The notes below the pieces were generated by a model that worked only from the letters and a program-made list of their open reading frames with translations, did no database searches and was not told the DNA's origin. Source: Diadema antillarum (lineage: Eukaryota). From it: a stretch of 64,000 nt of DNA. How positions within the stretch are numbered: position 1 is the stretch's first letter; each line of letters opens with the position of its first letter. The stretch lies in the NCBI RefSeq assembly GCF_040938485.1, contig NW_027271411.1:496001-560000 (forward strand), in the 5' to 3' direction. Position numbers and translations under genes: made by a program. Below, piece after piece: positions 1,956 through 59,737 of this stretch.

Positions 1956-3618
1956 CAGTCCGGGAAACCCGCTCATGAGGACCGCCCCCGCGTACGAGGA
2001 TGGTCCCTCCTCATGAGGACCTCCCCCCGCCTCATGAGGCCCCCCGGGGAACGCCTCATGAGGCCCCGCATTCACTTCTTATTCATCTCACATCTGACGT
2101 ATAAATTGTCGCAACTTTGCACGGTGATTTTTTGTTACACACACATGTCCACTATCCATGATGAAAAGAAGAAAAAATCCTGTCTGTTTTTTTTTTTTTA
2201 AATCGAGTTTTAATCACCCGATGCAGAGCGCCCATCAAAACACGGGCGCCAGCGCGTTCGCACAATGCAAGACTGCCGCACCTAGCGGCCTGATCCGACT
2301 AAATATTTTCGATGCTTTTTTCTGCGGCTCTCACCTCTCCGTGCACGAATCAGCCTCGTGAAGCTGAAGTCTGACATCTTTTTACACAAATTCGTAACGA
2401 GAAAAATTAAATCAGTACTAACCTGATCTTGTCCATATATTCCAAATTACTATTCCACACTGATAGAGTAGGTGGGTAGATGACATACTCCAGTTTGTTA
2501 GCAAAATAATCACTTTGTAGGTATGACGAGTTCACTTTCTTCGTCAATTCCGCCCACGATTCCGCCGCCCGCTTGCGTGTTTTTTTTAGACGGCACAGAT
2601 TGGGGAAACTAAAAATCTATCGGGGACCCTATCTCTAAACCTAACCCTAATCCTAATCCTAACCCTAACCATCAAACCCTAACCCTAACCCTAACCCTAA
2701 CCCTAACCCCAACCCTAACCCTAACCATAACCATAACCAAAAACCCTAACCCAACGTTTTTCCCATAGGTTTAACACGCGACATGCCCCAATCTGTGCCG
2801 TCTTAAAAAAAAACGCCGCCCGCTTACCGTTTGGGCGCTTTCTCTGGAATCATCCCGCGACGTGAGGTACGTCGCATCACATCACGCATCCAGCACATAC
2901 CAGTCTGGTACTTAGTATGTGCTGGATGCGTGATGTGATGCGACGTACGTCGCGTCGCGGGATGATTCCAGAAAAAGTGCCCAAACGGCGGAATCGTGGG
3001 CGGAATTGACGAAGAAAGTGAACTCGTCATACCTACAAAGTGATTATTTTGCTAACAAACTGGAGTATGTCATCTACCCACCTACTCTATCAGTGTGGAA
3101 TAGTAATTTGGAATATATGGACAAGATCAGGTTAGTACTGATTTAATTTTTCTCGTTACGAATTTGTGTAAAAAGATGTCAGACTTCAGCTTCACGAGGC
3201 TGATTCGTGCGCGGAGAGGTGAGAGCCGCAGAAAAAAGCATCGAAAATATTTAGTCGGATCAGGCCGCTAGGTGCGGCAGTCTTGCATTGTGCGAACGCG
3301 CTGGCGCCCGTGTTTTGATGGGCACTCTGCATCGGGTGATTAAAACTCGATTTAAAAAAAAAAAAACAGACAGGATTTTTTCTTCTTTTCATCATGGATA
3401 GTGGACATGTGTGTGTAACAAAAAATCACCGTGCAAAGTTGCGACAATTTATACGTCAGATGTGAGATGAATAAGAAGTGAATGGGGGGCCTCATGAGGC
3501 GTTCCCCGGGGGGCCTCATGAGGCGGGGGGAGGTCCTCATGAGGCGGGGGGAGGTCCTCATGAGGAGGGACCATCCTCGTACGCGGGGGCGGTCCTCATG
3601 AACGGGTTTCCCGGACTG
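1956..3618. mobile_element. Non-autonomous fold-back DNA transposon (near-perfect palindrome), Academ-like by termini and TSD
   Basis: Termini CAGTCCGGGAAACCCG / CGGGTTTCCCGGACTG, 4-bp TSD TGAT (1952-1955, 3619-3622). Arms are reverse complements up to a 14-nt loop at 2901-2914; the mirrored ORF pairs 2158-2361/3192-3395 confirm the symmetry. The superfamily is an inference. Confidence 0.85.
2575..2816. mobile_element. MITE containing (TAACCC)n telomere-type repeats, 9-bp TSD (MuDR-like by TSD)
   Basis: ~30-bp TIRs GCGT-T(n)-AGACGGCACAGATTGGGG / CCCCAATCTGTGCCGTCTT-A(n)-CGC; direct repeat CGCCCGCTT at 2566-2574 and 2817-2825; degenerate CCCTAA array at ~2635-2752. Confidence 0.75.
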
Positions 3619-37019: not shown

Positions 37020-40000
37020 TTACACATCTCCTTCCAACAAAAGGCACAACTTGCTGATAGGCCGCGTATAAGCACCCAACTTTGTCTTCACTTCTACGCT
37101 GCGAACGTAGCCCTCAGCATCTGGTAGTGTGCGCGTCACTCTCCCCAGCAACCAGGTGTTTCGTGGCAATGTCTGGTCCACCAGCAGCACCAAGTCACCA
37201 ACCTGGAGATTGCGTTGTGGCTCCACCCACTTCTGCCTCTGCTGCAACTGGGGAAGATATTCTTTCGTCCATCTGCGCCAGAACAGATCTGACATGTACT
37301 GCACCTGACGCCATCTTCGTCTGGCATACACATCAGTCTCTCGGGTCACCGTTGGTGGTAGTTGTGGTTGTGACTTCATTAGAAGCAGATGGTTTGGAGT
37401 TAATGCTTCTAAATCAGTTGGGTCATCTGACACCTTGGTAATGGGCCTCCCATTAATGATGGCTTCTGCTTCGCAAAGGAGTGTCTGCAAACCTTCGTCA
37501 TCTAGTGTCTGCTGCTTTACAAGGTTAAACAGCAACTCTCTCACCGTGCGTATCTGTCGTTCCCAGACGCCGCCATGATGTGAGCCCCTGGGAGGATTGC
37601 AGCTCCACTGTATGTTGTGTTGCAGCAGTGCATCGTTGATCTGTGCTTGATTCCATGCATCTATCTCTCGTTTCAGTTCTCTTTTTGCTCCAACCAGATT
37701 AGTGCCATTGTCAGATCTCATTACGTGCACTGCACCTCTCCGTGCAATGAACCTTCTAATGGCTGCGATGCATGAATCTGTACTGAGACTGTCAGCCTTC
37801 TCGATATGCACTGCTCTGACTGCAAGGCATGTGAACATCACACCATATCTTTTCACAACTGAACGTCCTCTCTTCACATCCAGTGGGCCAAAGAAATCGA
37901 CACCTACCCTTGTGAATGGAGGATCATCGGGCTTGATTCTGTCAGCTGGTAAGTCTGCCATCTTCTGCTGAAGAACCTTTGCTCGGTTACGTCTGCATTG
38001 GATACAGGTCCCCGTTATCTTCCGGACGGCAGAATTTGCACTTGGCATCCAGTAGTTCTGGTGAAGTCGAGCCAGTACGTAGTTTCTCCCACTGTGCCCT
38101 GACATCTTGTGTATGTGTTCTAGGATCAACTTTGACACATGACTCTTCTTAGGGAGAATTACAGGATGTTTCACATTCATGGGAAGTGAACCTCGACTCA
38201 GCCTTCCTCCAACTCTCAGCAGGCCCTCATCCAGCTCTGGGTCAAGTCTATAGATAGGACTTGTTCTTTTCACTCGTGTTTTCCGTTCTCCTTTACTTGC
38301 TGTTTGGATTGAGCCTTCGTTCTGTAGTCCCTCAATTTCACATGGGAATGCTTCACTCTGGGCAAAACCCACAATCTTTGCTTCTGCAGCTTGCATTTCC
38401 TGAAGTGTCAGTCTCCCTTTCAGGGATTCATCTTGAGAAGTGGTCTGCTCCTTCTTCTGACTCATCCATTTCACAAATCGCCTCAACCAGCACACTGCCC
38501 TTTTCAGTCTCATCCAGTCTGAGTAGTGATGGATAAGTTCGCTTGTGGGATTTGAAGTTTCCTCTTTGGTCACTTCCGTGGCAAGGCATGTTTTCTTCAA
38601 TTCCAATTCAACATGCAGATTGCTTGGCGAGACTTCGCTTCTTGTCAGCCACTCCTCATCTGGTGTTTGGAGGAACTCTGGGCCTTCCTTCCAGACATCT
38701 GACTGCAGAAACTTATTCGCTTCGATTCCTCTTGAACACATGTCGGCAGGATTAAGTGAAGACTCCACATACCTCCACTGGTTTGGTTTGGATCCATCTC
38801 GAATCACTGCCACCCTGTTCGCTACGAATGTCTTGAATCGTGACGTGTCGTTATTTATGTAGCCAAGAACAGTCATACTATCAGTCCAGAAGAAGGTCTC
38901 ATCTACCAAGATGTCAAGCTCTTGCTTGATCATGTGGTCAACCCTGACCGCTACAGTTGCTGCTGTCAATTCCATTCTAGGAATAGACACCTCCTTCAGT
39001 GGTGCAACTCTAGCTTTGCTCGTCACAAACTTCACCTGTACTCTTTCTGCATTTTTCCATCGCAGATATGTGACGCTGCCATAGCCTTTTTCACTGGCAT
39101 CACAGAAATGATGCAGGGTGACTGACTCTGGCTCAAAATCTGGCGGTTTCAAGCATCTTGCCATCTTGAACTCCATCAGCCTTGGTAGTTCGGTCTTCCA
39201 GGTGTGCCATTTCCTCAGCAAGTCCGGTGCAATCTTGGCGTCCCAGCCCAACCGAGATCTACATAGCACTTGGAGCAACTGTTTGGCTGGCAACACAACT
39301 GGTGCTACACATCCTATGGGATCATACACAGAGCTCACAGTGGATAAAATCCCTCTTCTTGTCTCAGGTTTGTCCTTCAGATTGATCGTCACACCCAGCG
39401 TATCTTCATTTGTAGACCACACAATACCCAGTGCCTTCTCATTGATCTCATTCTTGACATCTAAGCTCAAGTCTCGAACACTCTTTGCTCTTTCCTCCAC
39501 TGGGATCTTGGCTAGCAACTCTGGCTCATTGCATAGCCACTTCGTCAGACGAAATCCCCTTCCTCTGCAGATCTCTGTCAAGTCTGACACCAATTTCTCA
39601 GCCTCCTGTACACTCTGCGTTGAGCACAAACAGTCATCGACGTAGAAGTTTCGATGCACAGTACGAATGACCTCATCTGAGAAGCTACCTGTCTGGTCCT
39701 GTGCTGCTCTTTTCAAGGCAAAGTTGGCACATGATGGTGATGATACAGCACCGAAGACGTGTACCTTCATTCTGTGCTCTGTCAAAGGTCGCTCAATGTC
39801 GCCGTTCTCCCACCACAGAAATCTCAACATGTCTCTGTCTCTTTTAGGTACACGGATCTGTGAGAACATGCCCTCTATGTCTGCTTGCATTGCCACTCTG
39901 TCTTGACGAAATCTGGTCAATACTCCAAACAACTTGTTTGCAAGATCCGGCCCCTGTAGCAGCTCCCTATTGAGAGAGAAGTCTCCATACTCAGCTGAGC

Positions 40001-42305
40001 AATCAAAGACGACCCGCAGCTTCCCTTTTTGAGGATGTACCACACCATGATGGGGAAGATACCACACTCTTCCATCATTTCTTTGTATTTCTTCCTCAGG
40101 TACTTTCTCCATGTACTCTTTCTTCATCATGAAGTCTACAAAGTCTGTGTATTCCCTTTTGAAGTCTGCTTGTCGTTCAAACCTTCTCTTCAAATGGCCT
40201 GCTCGCTGCATTGCTTGAAGTTTGTTATTTGGCAACTTCACATCGTCTCTACGGAAGGGAAGAGCTATCTCATAATGACCATCTTCCAGCTTCATCGACT
40301 GCTCTACCTTCTTGATGAAGATTAAGTCTTCCTGTGACTTCTCTTCCTTGTCATCAATGATCCTTTCATTGAAATCTTGATTGAACAGCCTTTCAAACTG
40401 CTGGTCAATGTCGGCCTTAGCCTTCACTCTGTGAGACTGGATTTTGTTTCCTTTAGCTCCATCCCTCGATACACCGTACACCAGCCATCCAAGAACTGTT
40501 CTGCATGCAAAGGGCCCATTTGGAACTTCACTGCTTATCACCTCTAATGGCTCCATTGCCCTCGGAACATTGCTTCCTATTAGCAATCCAACGTGCGCCT
40601 CTTCTGCTAAGGAAGGCATTTCGATGTTCTGCAGATAGTGCCACTTCTGCACATCCTCTTGCCTAGGAATGTCTTCCTTGTCTACTGGTATGTACTGTTG
40701 TGAGTAAACTTCTGGCAGTCGTATGATGTTGCGTCCTTGCATATCCATAACCTCTAGGTCTCTCAACACTTGGCTGGTTGTAATCTTTTCGTCTGTCATG
40801 GTAGACATGTGGAGGTTGATCGTCTTGCCTTGCACATTCAACGTTGTTGCCAGCTTTTCTGTACAGAAGACCGCGTTACTGCCAGAGTCGATGAACGCAT
40901 ATGTCTCTGTGCACACGCCTGTCCTTCGTGAGCGTACTCTGACAGGCACAATGCCTGGCAAGGTGTCATTTCCTGGTGAACTTGTGTTTAAGCTGCACTT
41001 AATTGTGTTTGATGCCACCGCTTGATTTTTGTTCTCACTATTCTGTTGTGGCTGCTGTGTAATAGTGGCAGAAGCCTCTGGTTCTATAGCTTGCTGCTGA
41101 GTGCCAGCCGAGTTGTTCTCCCTTTTAGGTTGATCCACCTTAAACTCCCTATGCAGCACTGTTGGGTGTTGTTTGCTACAAATGCTGCACTTCAATCTCC
41201 TCTTGCAATTTCTTGCAAAGTGGGCAGCACCTTGAAGACAGCTAAAGCACAGACCTTCTTTTTTGCAAAATGACAGGCGGTCTTCATATGGCTTGGATGC
41301 GAGCAATGTGCAATCAGCCAGAGCATGTGTCCCTCTGCTGCAGAACAAGCACACTTCCTTCTTGCTCTCTGCTTTTGCTGCAGGCATCGCTGATGTGCTG
41401 AAACTTGATTTGCCTGCACTTGCAGACACCTTGCCTGTGCCTACGAATTTTGCTGGTGGTTTAGCCTGGTACTTCAGATTCCCATACACCGGATTCGTTG
41501 CAATCCTTGCTTGCTTGGCGATGAATGACACCACATCATCAAAGGTTATGTTGCCTTGCTTCTCCTCTTGGATGTCATCTGCTCGATTTCTCCATTTATC
41601 CCTCAGCTTGTATGGGAGCTTTCCAATGATCAGCCTTATGTTGTGAGAGTGGTTGACCTCTGACTCCATGTTGAGGTCCCTTGCAAGATTGTGCAGCTCG
41701 GTTACGAAAATCGAGAAGCGATGAAGTTCTTCTCCATCTTCTGGTTTGATGTCAGGCCATTGCACTGCTTTCATCATCATTGTCTCTACGATGAGCTGCC
41801 TATTGCCAAATTTCCTTCGCAGCAAATCTTTTGCCTTTCTGTAGGCCACAGTCTGGTCTTGGCCGTACATGCAGCTTTTCACGATGGCATTGGCTTCCCC
41901 CAATGTGTATTGGTCCAAATAATACAGCCGATCAGAGTCACTGTAAGTCTTAGCTTCGATGGTATGTTCGAATGCTCGCACGAAGGAGTGGTAATGTAGT
42001 GGGTCTCCTGTGAATGGTTTCACCTGCTTTTGTGGCAGAGAGGCCTTCATGTTTTGCTCAACAAGCATCCTCATCAGCTGATTCTGTTGCTGTAGAAATG
42101 ACAACATTGCTGCATTTTCCATTCCTGCAGCACTAGCTGGTGCTGACATTTCCTCATGTGCGTTTCCATTTGCATGCATATTAAGTGGCTGCATTCTTGA
42201 AAAGCCTGTTTCTAAGCTCTCTGGTGTCCTGAGTGGACTCGATGGTTGAGGCATGTATGGGTCTTGATGATACATTGGATAATCATCCGACGTCTGCTCA
42301 TCCAT
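37020..42305 (-). CDS. BEL/Pao Gag-Pol polyprotein, 1761 aa
   Basis: DUF1759-type gag (LPQKQVKPFTGDPLHY), three Cys/His knuckles (CLFC..H..C, CFSC..H..C, CSIC..H..H), protease FIDSGS, RT YLPHHGV/ADIEGMF/FYVDD, RNase H HHFCDASEKGYG, integrase H-H-C-C, VDFFGP, SDNGTN, GGVWER, and a C-terminal VGDLVLL..W.LGRV domain. Domain order PR-RT-RH-IN. Confidence 0.97.
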   Translation of the reverse strand: MDEQTSDDYPMYHQDPYMPQPSSPLRTPESLETGFSRMQPLNMHANGNAHEEMSAPASAAGMENAAMLSFLQQQNQLMRMLVEQNMKASLPQKQVKPFTGDPLHYHSFVRAFEHTIEAKTYSDSDRLYYLDQYTLGEANAIVKSCMYGQDQTVAYRKAKDLLRRKFGNRQLIVETMMMKAVQWPDIKPEDGEELHRFSIFVTELHNLARDLNMESEVNHSHNIRLIIGKLPYKLRDKWRNRADDIQEEKQGNITFDDVVSFIAKQARIATNPVYGNLKYQAKPPAKFVGTGKVSASAGKSSFSTSAMPAAKAESKKEVCLFCSRGTHALADCTLLASKPYEDRLSFCKKEGLCFSCLQGAAHFARNCKRRLKCSICSKQHPTVLHREFKVDQPKRENNSAGTQQQAIEPEASATITQQPQQNSENKNQAVASNTIKCSLNTSSPGNDTLPGIVPVRVRSRRTGVCTETYAFIDSGSNAVFCTEKLATTLNVQGKTINLHMSTMTDEKITTSQVLRDLEVMDMQGRNIIRLPEVYSQQYIPVDKEDIPRQEDVQKWHYLQNIEMPSLAEEAHVGLLIGSNVPRAMEPLEVISSEVPNGPFACRTVLGWLVYGVSRDGAKGNKIQSHRVKAKADIDQQFERLFNQDFNERIIDDKEEKSQEDLIFIKKVEQSMKLEDGHYEIALPFRRDDVKLPNNKLQAMQRAGHLKRRFERQADFKREYTDFVDFMMKKEYMEKVPEEEIQRNDGRVWYLPHHGVVHPQKGKLRVVFDCSAEYGDFSLNRELLQGPDLANKLFGVLTRFRQDRVAMQADIEGMFSQIRVPKRDRDMLRFLWWENGDIERPLTEHRMKVHVFGAVSSPSCANFALKRAAQDQTGSFSDEVIRTVHRNFYVDDCLCSTQSVQEAEKLVSDLTEICRGRGFRLTKWLCNEPELLAKIPVEERAKSVRDLSLDVKNEINEKALGIVWSTNEDTLGVTINLKDKPETRRGILSTVSSVYDPIGCVAPVVLPAKQLLQVLCRSRLGWDAKIAPDLLRKWHTWKTELPRLMEFKMARCLKPPDFEPESVTLHHFCDASEKGYGSVTYLRWKNAERVQVKFVTSKARVAPLKEVSIPRMELTAATVAVRVDHMIKQELDILVDETFFWTDSMTVLGYINNDTSRFKTFVANRVAVIRDGSKPNQWRYVESSLNPADMCSRGIEANKFLQSDVWKEGPEFLQTPDEEWLTRSEVSPSNLHVELELKKTCLATEVTKEETSNPTSELIHHYSDWMRLKRAVCWLRRFVKWMSQKKEQTTSQDESLKGRLTLQEMQAAEAKIVGFAQSEAFPCEIEGLQNEGSIQTASKGERKTRVKRTSPIYRLDPELDEGLLRVGGRLSRGSLPMNVKHPVILPKKSHVSKLILEHIHKMSGHSGRNYVLARLHQNYWMPSANSAVRKITGTCIQCRRNRAKVLQQKMADLPADRIKPDDPPFTRVGVDFFGPLDVKRGRSVVKRYGVMFTCLAVRAVHIEKADSLSTDSCIAAIRRFIARRGAVHVMRSDNGTNLVGAKRELKREIDAWNQAQINDALLQHNIQWSCNPPRGSHHGGVWERQIRTVRELLFNLVKQQTLDDEGLQTLLCEAEAIINGRPITKVSDDPTDLEALTPNHLLLMKSQPQLPPTVTRETDVYARRRWRQVQYMSDLFWRRWTKEYLPQLQQRQKWVEPQRNLQVGDLVLLVDQTLPRNTWLLGRVTRTLPDAEGYVRSVEVKTKLGAYTRPISKLCLLLEGDV

Positions 42306-42971
42306 CTTTACAAATGGCTATCTGAAGTCACTTTGCTCCCAAATAAGCAAACGTGAACTAAACCTTGAAACTTGCTGCTTGCTTCCAGCCTGTTTCACTC
42401 TTAGTCCTGGTACTGCTTCATCAAGTCTTATCCAAAACTTGTTTAATCCTGGCCTTGCATTTACACTGTAATGTTTGCAAGTAATGTCCTTCAGGATTTC
42501 TGTAGTCCTGGCCTTGCTTAAAATATCATCCAAGACTATGCTGCTTTGGTCCTCCTACTATCTTCAATACCGGTACTAGACTGTCGACTGTAGGTCTAGT
42601 CCAAGCTGGCTTCCAGCTGTACTGGTACCAAAGCAATTTGTGTACTGTATTAGTCCTAGCCTTGTTTATGACTGCTCGTAAGCTGTAGAGCTCTAGATCC
42701 TTCCTTATTCCAAGGCTCTACAAACAGTTGGTCCTCCAACACTAAGATCCAGACGGTCCAAAGTCCATACTACCATGGAGTTGTAAGAGTAAGACCACTT
42801 TCTATCCAATTGCAGTCAATATCCAGTTCGGACTGGGTATAACAGTACTCTCACATTAATATAAGATCTATTTCCAGACCTCTTCTCCTTTTAGTCTTCC
42901 AGTCCAAGATTCTTCCACCATAGACTAGGTACTAGTCAATGTGGCCTTGTGTCGACATCTATTTGCTAATA

Positions 42972-43450
42972 TAGTCTTGGCCTTTTACTTGCAGATCTGT
43001 TCCACGACTATACTCAGTAAAGTCCTGGCCTTGTGTTTACTCAGATCTGTTCCAAATCCAAGACTCCTTCACTTTAGCATTTAGTCCTGGCCTGTATACT
43101 TGCAGATCTGTTCCAAGACTCATTGTACTTTAAGTACCCTGGTACTTAGATCTAGTCCTGGCCTTAAGTACTAGCAGTAGCAGATCTGTCCCAAGACTCC
43201 TTCACTTTAGCATTTAGTCCTGGCCTGTAATGCTGTATACTTGCAGATCTGTTCCAAGACTCATTGTACTTTAATAAAGTACTTAGATCTAGTCCTGGCC
43301 TTAAGTACTAGCAGTAGCAGATCTGTTCCAAGACTCCTTCGTAGAGACTAACGTTAGAGTACTTAGTCCTGGCCTTTCTTGCAGATCCGTTCCAAGACTC
43401 CTTCACTTTAATACTTAGTCCTGGCCTTCATTGCAGATCTGTTCCAAGAC
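42972..43450 (-). repeat. Bipartite degenerate tandem array in the retrotransposon 5' leader
   Basis: Eight units of box A (TAGTCCTGGCCT) plus box B (GCAGATCTGTTCCAAGACT) with variable spacers; period ~49-82 bp. Confidence 0.9.
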
Positions 43451-43734
43451 ACTGTCACTTTAACGTTAGTACCGATTGCAGGTAGGCCTACTAGACCAGT
43501 CCTGGCCTTACATTGAAAGAGTTAGACTTTCTTTCCTTTCATCATTCATATTCCAAGACTAAATCTAGATGTCTAACTAGCCATACTTGTACTTGGTAGG
43601 ACTGGTTTAATTACTTCACTGTATCCACTGAAGTCGCCTCTGTTCCAGTTCATGTTGAGACTCACTGTTTCCACCCAATCAGTTCTGTCACTACACAGTC
43701 TCATTCTCCAAACGAGGCAATCTTTCAACTGAAA

Positions 43735-44374
43735 TGTAGCTGCTGGTTATTGCTACTGACTCTTATATGCTGTAATGTATGATACCCGGGCACTTTGTGT
43801 AATCTTGGGTTGGCTCTTTCTTGTCACGCCACTCTTCCGCCGATCCGTCTCCCGATTTCCACTTCCATTCACACTTCATCATCCGATCATCACACACACT
43901 GATGCTCTGTACACACTTGCGCTGTTCTGGCACGGTACGGTACTCACAAACTTGCAGCGAATCACGATCAAGTAACTGTGCTGTGGTATTGTCCACCGTG
44001 TTCTTTAATGCATCGTTTCACGTCTGACTCACTATTTTCTACACTTGAACACTTGAGACACGATCGAGCATCAATGAAGGTCAACACGATGAATTCTTCA
44101 CTGCCTGTCTGTTCTACATCCTTACATGATTACCGAGCAGAAAAGGTGAAAAGGTGGAAAGGCGGTACAAAGTGGGAAAAGCAGAAGTAGGAGGTTGAAA
44201 GATTGTGCGCCTCCCCCGGGTCACAATCACAGCATCCCTGCCCGTTTCCGTTAGCCAAGTCCTCTCTTCTCTTTATATGTGGAGTCTGTACTGCCTATTA
44301 TACTAGTGAGATGCTGTATGCATTTTCAGATTCGACCACAAGGTGGCGCTATTCCTGTTAAATCGGCAGTAACA
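43735..44374 (-). repeat. 5' LTR (640 bp)
   Basis: Minus strand starts TGTTACTGCC and ends CAGCTACA; TATAAA at 44277-44272; ATTAAA near 44005. Confidence 0.95.
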
Positions 44375-44390
44375 TCGGGGGATTGCAATT

Positions 44391-49381: not shown

Positions 49382-50692
49382 TCATGTGGGCTTTTGATCC
49401 ACTGCCTTTTCCTTCTCTCTATCCTCTCTGCGCTTTTTTAACTTGAATTTCAGTAGAATCAGTTCGTGCTTCTCTTTGGAGAGAATGAAAGAATTAAGTT
49501 TTGGCTCATAGCCGACGGCTGTAAGCTCTTTGTGCCGTTTCTTTATCAAATCAATACTCCTTGCAAATATCCTGGGTGTCCGGATGATGTCCTCTACTGT
49601 GAAACCGAGTTCAAGGACAAGGTCAATGTGGCTCTGTATCGTCTCCACGCTGGCATGAAGCAGCTGTGGATGCCTGCGGACAAGGTCCTTCAATTTCTCA
49701 TTGCTCAGCACCAGCCGCTTCTGGAGGTACTCACATCGCGACTGCAAGAATTCGGTCCCGATCCGGATGGAACTCGGGCAGTATCGAATGACCGAGATCA
49801 GGTCCTCTCCCGAAAAGCCAAACTTCCTCAAAAATTTGACGTTGGTCTCCAGTTCTGAGACCTGGCGTACAAACAGAGTCGGGTCATTGCGCATGACGTA
49901 TCGGATGACCCTATTCTGATCCCCAACAAACTTCTCTTCCGTCATGACCTGTTTAAGATAAGAGGCTACACGCTCCACGCCATTCTGTACTCGATAAAAC
50001 AAGGATGGGGTGTATACTAAGGTGTAGCATATGTTCTTGTCAGTAACTTCCAGGTACTTCATGTATTCTATGTTGCCAATGACTGTCTCTGGTGTGCTGT
50101 AGAAGCGAGGCGCTCGCTGGAAGATGTTTGCAAGCTGTTCCACCCTGAGTCCAACAGTCACCAGGTAATCCACCAGTTCCTGGACCAACTTGACATCCTT
50201 CCTCAGAAACGATGCATCCTTGTAGATGATATTGATAATATCTGGATCATCCAGACCTAGCCCCCTGAGAAGGTCTACATGCTGTTTGAGACTATACGCA
50301 TCCTGCTTGAGCACCGTGGGCCGTAGTTTCTGGAGTTTGTCACAATCAATACCGAGACTAGCTAGAAAATCCATGCTCTTCTTATTTGGCACAATGCGTT
50401 TGCGGCTAACGGCTTCACTGGAACACCTTCTTCCATTCCAGTCATTGTTAATGTCACATCCAATAACCAAAGGTTTAGGAAAAATTGTGGCAGCTGTTGT
50501 TGATTCATCTCGACCAATTCTTGTATGATGGACGACTGATCTGACTTCATTCCAGAGAGGTCTTGTAGGACTGGGATAGCTGCTTGGCACTGAGACTGCT
50601 CTAATGTACATTGAGCTGCTCTGGGAACTTCTCAGAAGTGCTGAGGAGAAATGCCTCGTTAGCAACGAGGTAGTAATGCAGAACTTCATCAT
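49382..50692 (-). CDS. Mitochondrial transcription termination factor (mTERF) family protein, 436 aa, mtDBP/mTERF1-like
   Basis: Single coding exon after the acceptor at 50707-50708. Ser/Arg-rich N-terminal targeting-like peptide, then repeated mTERF motifs (LRGLGL..I..II..DASFL, LRKFGFS..LI..I..CPS.I, LV..HPQLL, LGFT.EDIIRTPRIF) and a basic C-terminus. Probable 5' UTR exon with donor at ~51785. Confidence 0.85.
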   Translation of the reverse strand: MMKFCITTSLLTRHFSSALLRSSQSSSMYIRAVSVPSSYPSPTRPLWNEVRSVVHHTRIGRDESTTAATIFPKPLVIGCDINNDWNGRRCSSEAVSRKRIVPNKKSMDFLASLGIDCDKLQKLRPTVLKQDAYSLKQHVDLLRGLGLDDPDIINIIYKDASFLRKDVKLVQELVDYLVTVGLRVEQLANIFQRAPRFYSTPETVIGNIEYMKYLEVTDKNICYTLVYTPSLFYRVQNGVERVASYLKQVMTEEKFVGDQNRVIRYVMRNDPTLFVRQVSELETNVKFLRKFGFSGEDLISVIRYCPSSIRIGTEFLQSRCEYLQKRLVLSNEKLKDLVRRHPQLLHASVETIQSHIDLVLELGFTVEDIIRTPRIFARSIDLIKKRHKELTAVGYEPKLNSFILSKEKHELILLKFKLKKRREDREKEKAVDQKPT

Positions 50693-51035
50693 GAATTTGC
50701 TGTTACCTGGCAAGGAAAGAAACAAAACAGAACATTTTAGTGATATTTCTTATAACTTCTACCTCTAGTTTTAAAGTCGCAGTGGGTAGGAATGACATCA
50801 CAAAAGGAATTAAGATTTTTCTTCACTATCAAATTCATTTTACACCCTCACCATATCCGAACACTGATATTAATAAATTTAAAATTTACACAAATTATCT
50901 GTTTGCTAAAAAAAAAAAAAAATCAAAACATCACAAAGTTAGCTTTAAGATTGTCAGCTTGATGAAAAGTTGGGCCTTTAGTATACTTTTAAAGCAAACC
51001 AATCTCCTGGTTACATTATACATACTATACACTTT

Positions 51036-57957: not shown

Positions 57958-58390
57958 GGGAATGACCAAATTTGGGCCAAATTATCACATTTTTTTCTTC
58001 TTGGAAACACATGGTCAAATTTGTCACTCAAACTTGGCAGGCATAATCACTAGGGTGACAATGTAGGCCTATACATTGTACAAGGACCCCAGAACCCCCT
58101 AGCTGAGAATCTGACAAATTAAAAGAAAAAAAAAATGTTGTTTAAAACCAGAATTTACACAAAGTAAATACATTAGTTAACTTTACTTTCAAGGTTATTT
58201 ATGGAAGATCCAAATTGTTTTCTAGATTTTCCACTTCTTTTTCAGACTTTATCACGTCCAGGTGTATGTAACATAATTTTTCAACAGTAGCGTTTATATT
58301 TTCAAAATGTTTTTTTAAGCTGATAAAATTTTATGAAAAAAGAATTGTTTTTGTTTACTCTTCCAGCCAAGCCCTGTACCAATCCAGCAG

Positions 58391-59737
58391 ATGATGATCA
58401 TGGAGGAGGAACAGTGGACGAACCTGAAGAAGCACCTGGCTGTGTACACGGTGGAAGTCTACTGCTGCAAGCTGTGCAATGACTACTCCTCCACTCACAA
58501 GAGCCTAATGGCCACCCACCTGCACACAGTGCATCCAGACGACTTAACAGAGTCACCGCCAGAGTCCAAGGTGGAAGCCACATTGCCCACAGCAACGGAG
58601 GGAGACGCCCAGGTTGTGAATGCAGACGATATTGTGGACAGTGATCTCAAAGAAGACGGAAGCTCAGATTTCGCGCTGGCCCGACAGGTTGCGGAGAACG
58701 AACAAATCGAAAAGACCATCCTGCAGATTTTGCAAACGAACAGCGACATCAGTGTGCAGGCAGCCGGCCAAGATGGCAAGGCCCAGCAGAGGGAGGACAA
58801 GGAGAACAAGCGCTCAAAGAAGAGTAAGAAGAAGAAGAAAGGAAAGAAGCAAGAGCAAGGAGTACCCAAGAGGAAGAACAGGAAAACATGCAAACTGTGC
58901 GATTTCTCCACCAAAGAATCTGATGAGTTCCGGGCCCACTTGGAGAAACACTATTCGGACCCAAGCAGTCGCACCTGTCAATTGTGTGTTAGAGTGTTCA
59001 AAACATACAAGGAACTCATGAAGCACACGAGACGCGGTTGCCCGCCTGGTCGGCAGGTGTACAAGTGTGACGAGTGCGGGAAAACATGCAATGACAAACG
59101 AGCTATCATGGAGCACATGGTCGTTCACTCGGAGGACAGGCCCTACGCTTGCCGCGTCTGCGGGAAAACGTACAAGACGAAGAAGATCCTTCGACGGCAC
59201 GAGGGCATCCACGCCATGGAGCGAGACACGTACCAATGCCCTGAGTGTGCGTTCAAGACGCACTGGAAGACGAACATCAAGCGGCACATCCTGGAGGTCC
59301 ACAAGAAGGACACACGCCCCCTTTTCTCCTGCACACATTGCCCCTTCACCACCCCCAACAAGCGGTACATCGAAAAGCATAAATTCGGCCACTGGAAGGA
59401 CTGCCCCTACATGTGTGAGACGTGTGGGAAAATGTTCAAGGTAGAGCAGGAAATGGAGGCCCACAAGCAAACCCATGCCCAACCGGACATTGCCTGGCAA
59501 CTCATCCAGCTCCAGAACAGCGAACCCCAGCTGGTGGAAGAAACCATTGTCCAGTACCAACCTCACATTCAGATGCACACGCAGGAGATTCAGATCCATG
59601 ACCATGACTCCAATCTCCAGCCTGTGCAGGTTACCATAAATGAACAGGATGAGGCAACCAGCACCATTGTCTTGTCCCAGATTCCTGTGGTTCAGTACTT
59701 GGACATAGTATCAAGGGACGTTGTTGAGCAAGAGTGA
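58391..59737 (+). CDS. C2H2 zinc-finger protein, 448 aa
   Basis: One N-terminal finger (CKLC..HLHTVH), an acidic spacer, a basic NLS-like run (KRSKKSKKKKKGKK), seven tandem fingers including an SEDRPY linker, and a Gln-rich tail. Acceptor at 58365-58366; probable UTR exons end at ~54632 and ~57558. Confidence 0.92.
   Translation: MMIMEEEQWTNLKKHLAVYTVEVYCCKLCNDYSSTHKSLMATHLHTVHPDDLTESPPESKVEATLPTATEGDAQVVNADDIVDSDLKEDGSSDFALARQVAENEQIEKTILQILQTNSDISVQAAGQDGKAQQREDKENKRSKKSKKKKKGKKQEQGVPKRKNRKTCKLCDFSTKESDEFRAHLEKHYSDPSSRTCQLCVRVFKTYKELMKHTRRGCPPGRQVYKCDECGKTCNDKRAIMEHMVVHSEDRPYACRVCGKTYKTKKILRRHEGIHAMERDTYQCPECAFKTHWKTNIKRHILEVHKKDTRPLFSCTHCPFTTPNKRYIEKHKFGHWKDCPYMCETCGKMFKVEQEMEAHKQTHAQPDIAWQLIQLQNSEPQLVEETIVQYQPHIQMHTQEIQIHDHDSNLQPVQVTINEQDEATSTIVLSQIPVVQYLDIVSRDVVEQE

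Follow-up and report, generated by a model that had tools for sequence, protein, structure and literature searches.

The window analysed here, a stretch of 64,000 nucleotides from Diadema antillarum, carries an intact LTR retrotransposon on its minus strand, and all features of this element are given on that strand unless marked otherwise. The 5' LTR (43735..44374; 640 nt, TG...CA) equals the 3' LTR (34081..34711; 631 nt) except for one 9-nt indel and two substitutions, and because the pair differs by so little, the insertion must be young. Comparison of the flanks gives a 5-bp target-site duplication (44375..44379, with its second copy at 34076-34080). Between the LTRs lie a 5' leader of 1,429 nt with 20 upstream ATGs (42306..43734), a single open gag-pol frame of 1,761 amino acids counted from its first ATG (37020..42305), and a 2.3-kb 3' untranslated region that ends in a polypurine tract (34712..37019). 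The gag-pol protein comprises DUF1759, a triple Cys-His box, a DSG protease motif, RT, Peptidase_A17, integrase and DUF5641 (Pfam matches PF05380, PF03564 and PF18701), and the LTRs, the polypurine tract and the PR-RT-RH-IN order are those of BEL/Pao (Belpaoviridae). The three Cys-His boxes (residues 323-388), DSG (477), YVDD (892) and DAS (1073) are BEL/Pao features in the portion of PMC554778 available, and the element is a BEL/Pao element, placed by the Pfam matches together with these motifs. The third finger of its Gag, CX2CX3HX4H, differs from the Suzu form given in that portion of PMC554778. The closest homologues of gag-pol are Diadema antillarum proteins (98% identity), followed by proteins of Lytechinus (62%) and Strongylocentrotus (55%), and its protein cluster has 13 members.

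Several further features were seen in and around the element. The 9-nt stretch exclusive to the 5' LTR (44278-44286) is missing from most of the contig depth in public runs X1 and X2. Both LTRs carry a CTCF-like motif on the plus strand (44336-44349 and 34673-34686), with one mismatch to what we take to be the CTCF consensus, and the window holds three such matches where 0.2 would be expected. The 3' untranslated region (34712-37019) is non-coding, with no open reading frame of 150 amino acids; its middle, in contrast to the remainder of the element, is AT-rich with hardly any CpG, and the 3' regions of relatives are mostly short compared with its 2.3 kb. It contains an exact 24-nt repeat (36950-36973 and 36734-36757), each copy of which folds on the sense strand into a hairpin whose 7-bp stem includes two G-U pairs and closes a 7-nt loop. 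Inside pol, the 120-nt stretch 38901-39020 folds strongly, with z-scores of -4.2 in sense and -3.6 in antisense; none of the 36 windows sampled scored lower. Elsewhere in the window, an inverted repeat at 1956-3618 has 563-nt arms that are 99% identical and flank telomere-like CCCTAA repeats, and an mTERF gene (49382-50749, minus strand) and a C2H2 zinc-finger gene (58337-59737, plus strand) flank the region.

The first-pass annotation had referred to a primer-binding (PBS) region, but no tRNA-type TGG site follows the LTR, and the window contains no tRNA gene. Elements with the Tf1-like mechanism use the 5' end of their own transcript, cut by RNase H, as primer. The signature of such self-priming is a stretch of at least 10 nt, beginning 0-5 nt after the LTR, that is complementary to the LTR (PMC6317226, in part). 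In the window element, 43718..43729, located 5 nt after the LTR and devoid of TGG, is exactly complementary to one contiguous 12-nt LTR stretch (44194..44205), which is therefore a candidate self-primer; none of 300 LTR shuffles reached 10 nt. The same signature was found in five of the eight loci whose LTR ends are fixed by direct repeats (the window element, L002, L026, L046 and L055, against a null of 0-3%), whereas L021, L044 and L060 lack it, and L060 has a TGG-type site. Eight more loci (L005, L006, L007, L009, L047, L052, L053 and L059) show this pattern with an LTR end that was inferred from the match itself. The paired stretches are 10-14 nt long and nearly always start with GT, with an LTR partner ending in AC, while the letters differ from family to family. 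According to the ICTV profile, the primer site of Belpaoviridae is an 18-nt complement of tRNA-Arg or tRNA-Gly (PMC8742986), which the window element does not have; its placement in BEL/Pao nevertheless stands on the protein features. Self-priming of this kind is known from Tf1/sushi, Tcn1 and TAR, which share the LTR-complementary stretch as defined in the accessible part of PMC6317226, although these elements belong to Ty3/gypsy and Ty1/copia and not to BEL/Pao.

The leader contains a tandem array, located between the 5' LTR and gag (leader 43734-42306) as had been reported from the sequence. Its core (42973..43451) comprises eight units, each composed of box B (AGUCUUGG), AA, the palindrome CAGAUCUG, 6-17 nt, AGG, box A (CCAGGACU) and a linker of 11-33 nt. 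The eight A boxes were found at plus-strand positions 42973, 43021, 43083, 43154, 43216, 43291, 43365 and 43417, at most 1 nt off the earlier list. Box A (CCAGGACT on the minus strand, which is the sense strand) is exact in seven of the eight units and box B in six. The 8-nt palindrome, described before as present in every unit, is likewise exact in seven, but the one at 43389 reads CGGATCTG; in public runs, the other letter stands at this position in most of the X1 contig depth, in all of X13 and in a minority of X2. Units 3-4 and 5-6 (43083..43335) are a recent two-unit duplication with a period of about 137 nt. The earlier observation that the boxes stay fixed while the spacers vary held up well: over the six non-redundant units (5 and 6 being omitted as recent duplicates), the 29-nt core is 95% identical, compared with 47% and 50% for the two spacers and 42% for shuffled spacers.

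Boxes also extend beyond the core, as had been suggested. Six B-like and five A-like boxes occur in the remaining 951 nt of the leader, compared with no B-like and one A-like box in the 8,225 nt of the element tested downstream. These include an upstream B...A pair without a palindrome (43498..43560), a set of degenerate boxes at 42652..42911 (B at 42911, 42743 and 42717; A at 42659), and a distal module by the start codon, also without a palindrome (42403..42537; B 42537, A 42511, A 42452, B 42439, A 42410). The two-box pattern matches eight times in the window, always within the leader (seven core units and a distal one at 42505), and never in 100 shuffles. The flanks are constant on one side of each box, in that the letter A follows box B in 13 of 14 cases and AGG precedes box A in 12 of 13, while the opposite flanks vary. 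We consider the array to be real, selected-looking and apparently undescribed; the literature searched, mostly outside subscription journals and Repbase reports, held no description of the array, of a BEL/Pao dimerisation or packaging signal, or of BEL/Pao self-priming.

The composition of the array is variable among copies. Contigs of four public runs contain joints that skip 143-145 nt or step back within the array, although unit counts drawn from these contigs are unsafe, being short-read assemblies across a repeat. In organism C, short-read contigs have the same boxes with different spacers between them. At a loose end of one X3 contig, box A is preserved except for a terminal change, and a different, longer palindrome apparently occupies the palindrome position, which is a single low-depth hint. 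Such variation is what would be expected if the array were a neutral tandem repeat, in which RT slippage on a hairpin-forming unit changes the copy number and the boxes persist because the switches occur within them. The differences in unit number and order, the recent duplication of units 3-6, the absence of the boxes from 83 related loci and the presence of unrelated short leader repeats in L010, L014 and L052 are all in keeping with this explanation. Nevertheless, the spacers have drifted almost to background while the cores remain 95% alike, and template switching, which reshuffles spacers, would give the boxes no shield against point mutation; in addition, the distal leader has further, irregularly spaced boxes, and boxes are retained in a second organism. 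We therefore regard neutrality as rather improbable.

Fixed boxes separated by variable spacers also recall a processed repeat-spacer RNA with acquired, CRISPR-like spacers, which had been offered as an alternative. This likeness is only outward, since the spacers are 6-33 nt long, alternate between two classes, turn up more than once in the array and have words in common, and since no Rfam family was matched at the gathering score (the lone match had an E-value of 0.56). The chance that this idea is right is close to nil. A separate candidate, that the leader is decayed Gag coding sequence, was dropped, as tblastn with all the proteins collected gave only three weak matches (E 0.011-0.031).

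The complementarity of box B to box A claimed earlier is indeed there, and the palindrome between them makes every unit a gapped palindrome. For any two units, the model predicts antiparallel pairing through three 8-bp helices (B:A, palindrome to palindrome, and A:B) with lopsided internal loops between them. In the folding model, this three-helix rod is preferred over two separate hairpins in all seven pairs of neighbours, by 2.8-13.9 kcal/mol. Nearly every core B box is paired to some A box, with a partner that shifts with the settings, and in every pairing register the AA after box B faces the AGG before box A. These core purines are predicted to be unpaired, with probabilities of 0.59-1.0 at a span of 150. 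Around the core, the nested B:A helices of the distal module have probabilities of 0.72-0.98 and 42335-42460 folds with a z-score of -3.28, whereas the upstream pair is weak in the whole-leader ensemble (0.06-0.25) and no B:A helices are predicted among the degenerate boxes at 42652..42911. Local 120-nt z-scores across the array are modest (+0.5 to -2.5).

The first-pass annotation had pictured the array as eight separate hairpins, each exposing its palindrome in a loop through which two genomes could kiss. Single units folded alone do form the B:A hairpin (-5.1 to -12.6 kcal/mol), and co-transcriptional folding could trap some of them, since four of the eight own-unit helices reach probabilities of 0.46-0.79 when pairing is limited to 80 nt. 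One whole-leader model also leaves the palindromes of units 3 and 7 unpaired to 54% and 80%, respectively. In the unconstrained ensemble, however, the own-unit helix has a probability of at most 0.03 in seven of eight units, and the palindromes are 62-99% paired, so that they are predicted to be mostly paired in cis, to an extent that depends on the span limit. Moreover, the stem of unit 8 is mismatched. Its variant box A at 42973, which was thought to convert a wobble into an A-U pair, faces AGUCGUGG within its own unit, which makes a G-A mismatch, and it is a perfect partner only to box B of unit 7. Together with the preference for rods in all seven neighbour pairs, these results make eight kissing hairpins very unlikely; the model predicts instead that neighbouring units zip into rods that bury the palindromes.

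Dimerisation was evaluated with a folding model that cannot score kissing loops or proteins, and the gains given here are thus computed without them. The predicted homodimer gain of the array (-12.6 kcal/mol) is no different from that of 25 shuffles (-11.3 +/- 2.0) and close to that of four control regions (-9.1 to -12.5), and single units showed no gain beyond shuffles (20-161 of 200 shuffles were as low). The extra drive to dimerise that had been proposed was therefore not found, which can be understood because a multiplied unit can satisfy itself in cis. Self-complementary sequence, as expected of a dimer-initiation site, is present in the 5' leader: palindromes of at least 8 nt number 18 compared with 5.0 expected, although this excess comes mostly from repetition, as the distinct ones in the array are 4 versus 1.7 (p 0.09). 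In the leader after the array, there are 14 distinct palindromes of at least 6 nt against 8.1 expected, a number reached by none of 100 shuffles, and no palindrome excess was found in the LTR, gag, pol or the 3' untranslated region. The position, the fixed boxes and the B:A complementarity are supported, and the suggested role in packaging or dimerisation is plausible, but free kissing loops and a gain from dimer formation are unsupported.

Selection on the sense RNA had further been argued from the strand on which the boxes can pair. The array folds with z-scores of -3.85 in sense and -3.40 in antisense, and the argument rests on one inherited G-U pair; among nine variant boxes, pairing is kept in sense only in three, in antisense only in two, in both in one and in neither in three. 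The strand asymmetry of the array is thus weak. Across ten units of this one array (unit 7 being misaligned), none of the eight pairs of the B:A helix has a compensatory double change. All three substitutions in the 16 core boxes hit the terminal pair or the wobble pair, a regularity noticed after the fact.

This near-symmetry of strands and lack of covariation would suit a DNA-level enhancer or insulator, in which CCARGACT, in either orientation, would be the site of one host factor and the palindrome that of another, with the spacers left to drift. Box B and the reverse complement of box A are one motif, one letter apart, which fits a single DNA-binding protein. In addition, AAGGCCA resembles what we take to be an NR5A half-site of nuclear receptors, although the C of the presumed NR5A core, CAAGG, stands before few A boxes. 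Enhancer or insulator arrays of this kind are also known to combine fixed boxes and freely varying spacers within a 5' untranslated region (PMC3286476, in part). On the other hand, on one and the same side the shared motif is flanked by AGG in box A but by TT in the reverse of box B, each constant within its class, which is predicted by a helix junction and not by a single DNA motif. An array acting as DNA is hence unlikely in our view, if still to be reckoned with. We favour an RNA function because conservation is confined to the pairing letters and the purines AA and AGG that face each other, because B:A helices recur by the start codon without a palindrome, and because relatives have leader palindromes with covarying cores, as described below.

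An RNA structure in this position might also serve translation or splicing, by hiding the 20 upstream AUGs within the 1,429-nt leader, by acting as a platform for internal entry or shunting, or by being intronic and therefore present in unspliced RNA only. A donor-like GTAAG word at 43511 stands just before the array, the palindrome clusters of L002, L010, L047, L052 and L068 begin at or just after a donor-like word, and another structured module lies right next to the start codon. However, the pyrimidine tract of the acceptor-like sites by the start codon is weak, and it is not obvious that a self-complementary unit would be needed. We think control of translation or splicing distinctly improbable as the explanation of the array, and it would be compatible with packaging rather than exclusive of it.

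Related sequences were collected from 83 loci with about 35-59% identity, of which metagenome contigs supplied 72 and genome contigs 11, and no related locus was found in viral contigs. The boxes occur in none of the 83, and the two-box pattern had no match in the genome or viral contigs searched. A FastTree phylogeny of RT placed 57 loci (15 of the 72 were left out for short RT matches), none of them inside the urchin clade. The 11 contigs carrying L073-L083 belong to bacterial genome bins, in which BEL/Pao sequence is most likely contamination from an animal host.

The 15 relatives with a defined leader have leaders of 15-544 nt. All 15 palindromes of at least 10 nt found in them come from four loci, and the other 11 leaders have none. 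Four loci that form one clade with a support of 98 (L010, L047, L052 and L068; RT identity to each other 67-72%), likely fish-derived because an Amphiprion protein falls in their wider clade, share four leader palindromes in identical order, whose cores covary while the flanks diverge. The clusters (L010:390-470, L047:660-740, L052:1400-1497 and L068:28-118) follow a splice-donor-like word. The last two cores are near-constant in all four loci, whereas the first two change symmetrically (AGCT or AGCGCT; GGCC or GATC), with one only 6 nt long in L010. As monomers, these clusters fold no better than shuffles (z -0.45 to +1.27); as homodimers, they gain more, with one to two of 40 shuffles as low in each case, for stretches that were chosen for their palindromes. 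Leader palindromes therefore appear to be selected in this lineage, but they are neither general, as 11 of 15 leaders have none of at least 10 nt, nor homologous to the urchin array, as the boxes are absent from all 83 loci. The four-palindrome cluster is thus an analogy to the urchin array and not its homologue, and it offers a second, cleaner candidate dimer signal for BEL/Pao. L002 has three leader palindromes other than those of the four-locus cluster (1463-1553), namely an 18-nt perfect palindrome containing the donor-like AG/GTAAG, followed by palindromes of 10 nt and 8 nt, and in L014 (1069-1176) five 22-nt tandem repeats fill a short leader. Repeats upstream of L016, L024 and L078 were dropped because their location in a leader is not established, and the fold of that in L024 is at shuffle level.

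On balance, we hypothesize that the array is a tandemly multiplied RNA scaffold for packaging and Gag docking in a BEL/Pao leader, to which we assign a probability of about 0.45, a little short of even odds. In this model, a repeated structural RNA module would dock Gag and thereby help to package the genome. Any two units would be able to zip antiparallel through three 8-bp helices, with AA predicted to face AGG whichever copies pair. The resulting purine junctions, about a dozen per RNA, may be docking sites for Gag or its nucleocapsid, like the G x AGG loop of HIV-1; the only feature that points to psi-type Gag binding is these conserved purines, predicted to be unpaired. The short helices would mostly be satisfied in cis and might, once Gag brings two RNAs together, exchange partners with the other genome in a multitude of registers; an extended dimer would result, in place of eight kissing loops. 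The unit itself may have been multiplied and reshuffled through template switching during reverse transcription. Replication of BEL/Pao is poorly understood according to the ICTV profile (PMC8742986), and the array is a small, testable candidate signal with natural variation in unit number, although it would be ordinary if it proved to be a DNA enhancer or a neutral repeat.

The Gag protein of the window element is short at its N-terminus, with 124 residues from the first methionine to the conserved DRL motif (41900-42305). The corresponding part has a similar length of 130-171 residues in Lytechinus, Strongylocentrotus and two further proteins; the sister group has 189-213, five other relatives have 339-451, and three more, which may be partial, have 39, 45 and 230. 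The N-terminus is therefore 200-300 residues shorter than in many relatives, and the part that is missing looks, by eye, helical and coiled-coil-like. It is conceivable, though we hold it for a long shot, that in this element, which would also be self-priming, a multivalent RNA scaffold stands in for the 200-300 missing residues and its helices cross-link genomes. If so, the number of units would be a natural dial for assembly.

Among known leader signals, the dimerisation and packaging signal of MLV is similar in its location between the primer site and gag and in its palindromes, which are paired in cis in the monomer and capable of pairing in trans, and the UCUG that ends each palindrome of the array recalls the UCUG-UPu-UCUG Gag sites of MLV (PMC3265304, in part). 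The MLV signal differs, however, in having two different palindromes within about 170 nt (PAL1 and PAL2) and GACG loops, as described in the same part of PMC3265304, whereas the array repeats one gapped-palindrome unit eight times, in variable number and without GACG loops, and is known here from sequence and prediction. SL1/DIS of HIV-1 likewise has a palindrome beside a helix whose conserved AGG purine loop serves as a Gag-binding site in that virus (PMC10483063, in part). By contrast, HIV-1 has just one such element, whose 6-nt palindrome sits in an apical loop, while in the array AA faces AGG and the palindrome is 8 nt long and predicted to be paired in cis.

Among LTR retrotransposons, the gypsy and ZAM insulator or enhancer arrays and the Mag-lineage repeats of Culex are also repeats in the 5' untranslated region (PMC3286476, in part). 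Unlike the reading preferred here, the gypsy and ZAM arrays act as DNA, and the accessible part of PMC3286476 describes no self-complementary unit in them. Dimerisation palindromes near the 5' end are known from Ty1, in which PAL1 and PAL2 mediate dimerisation of the genome (PMC6844567, in part), and from Ty3, in which PAL6 does so and only one of six palindromes mattered (PMC11381356, in part), so that palindromes alone prove nothing. Ty1 and Ty3 thus resemble the urchin element in being LTR retrotransposons with such palindromes, but in the portions of these sources available they have one or two sites and no array. Exposure of the palindromes is doubtful in the array and the gain from dimer formation was not found; with these reservations, the array would work like the MLV signal combined with the G x AGG loop of HIV-1. 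A tandem gapped palindrome that pairs in many registers would be a design unlike that of retroviruses, Ty1 and Ty3, with their one or two sites.
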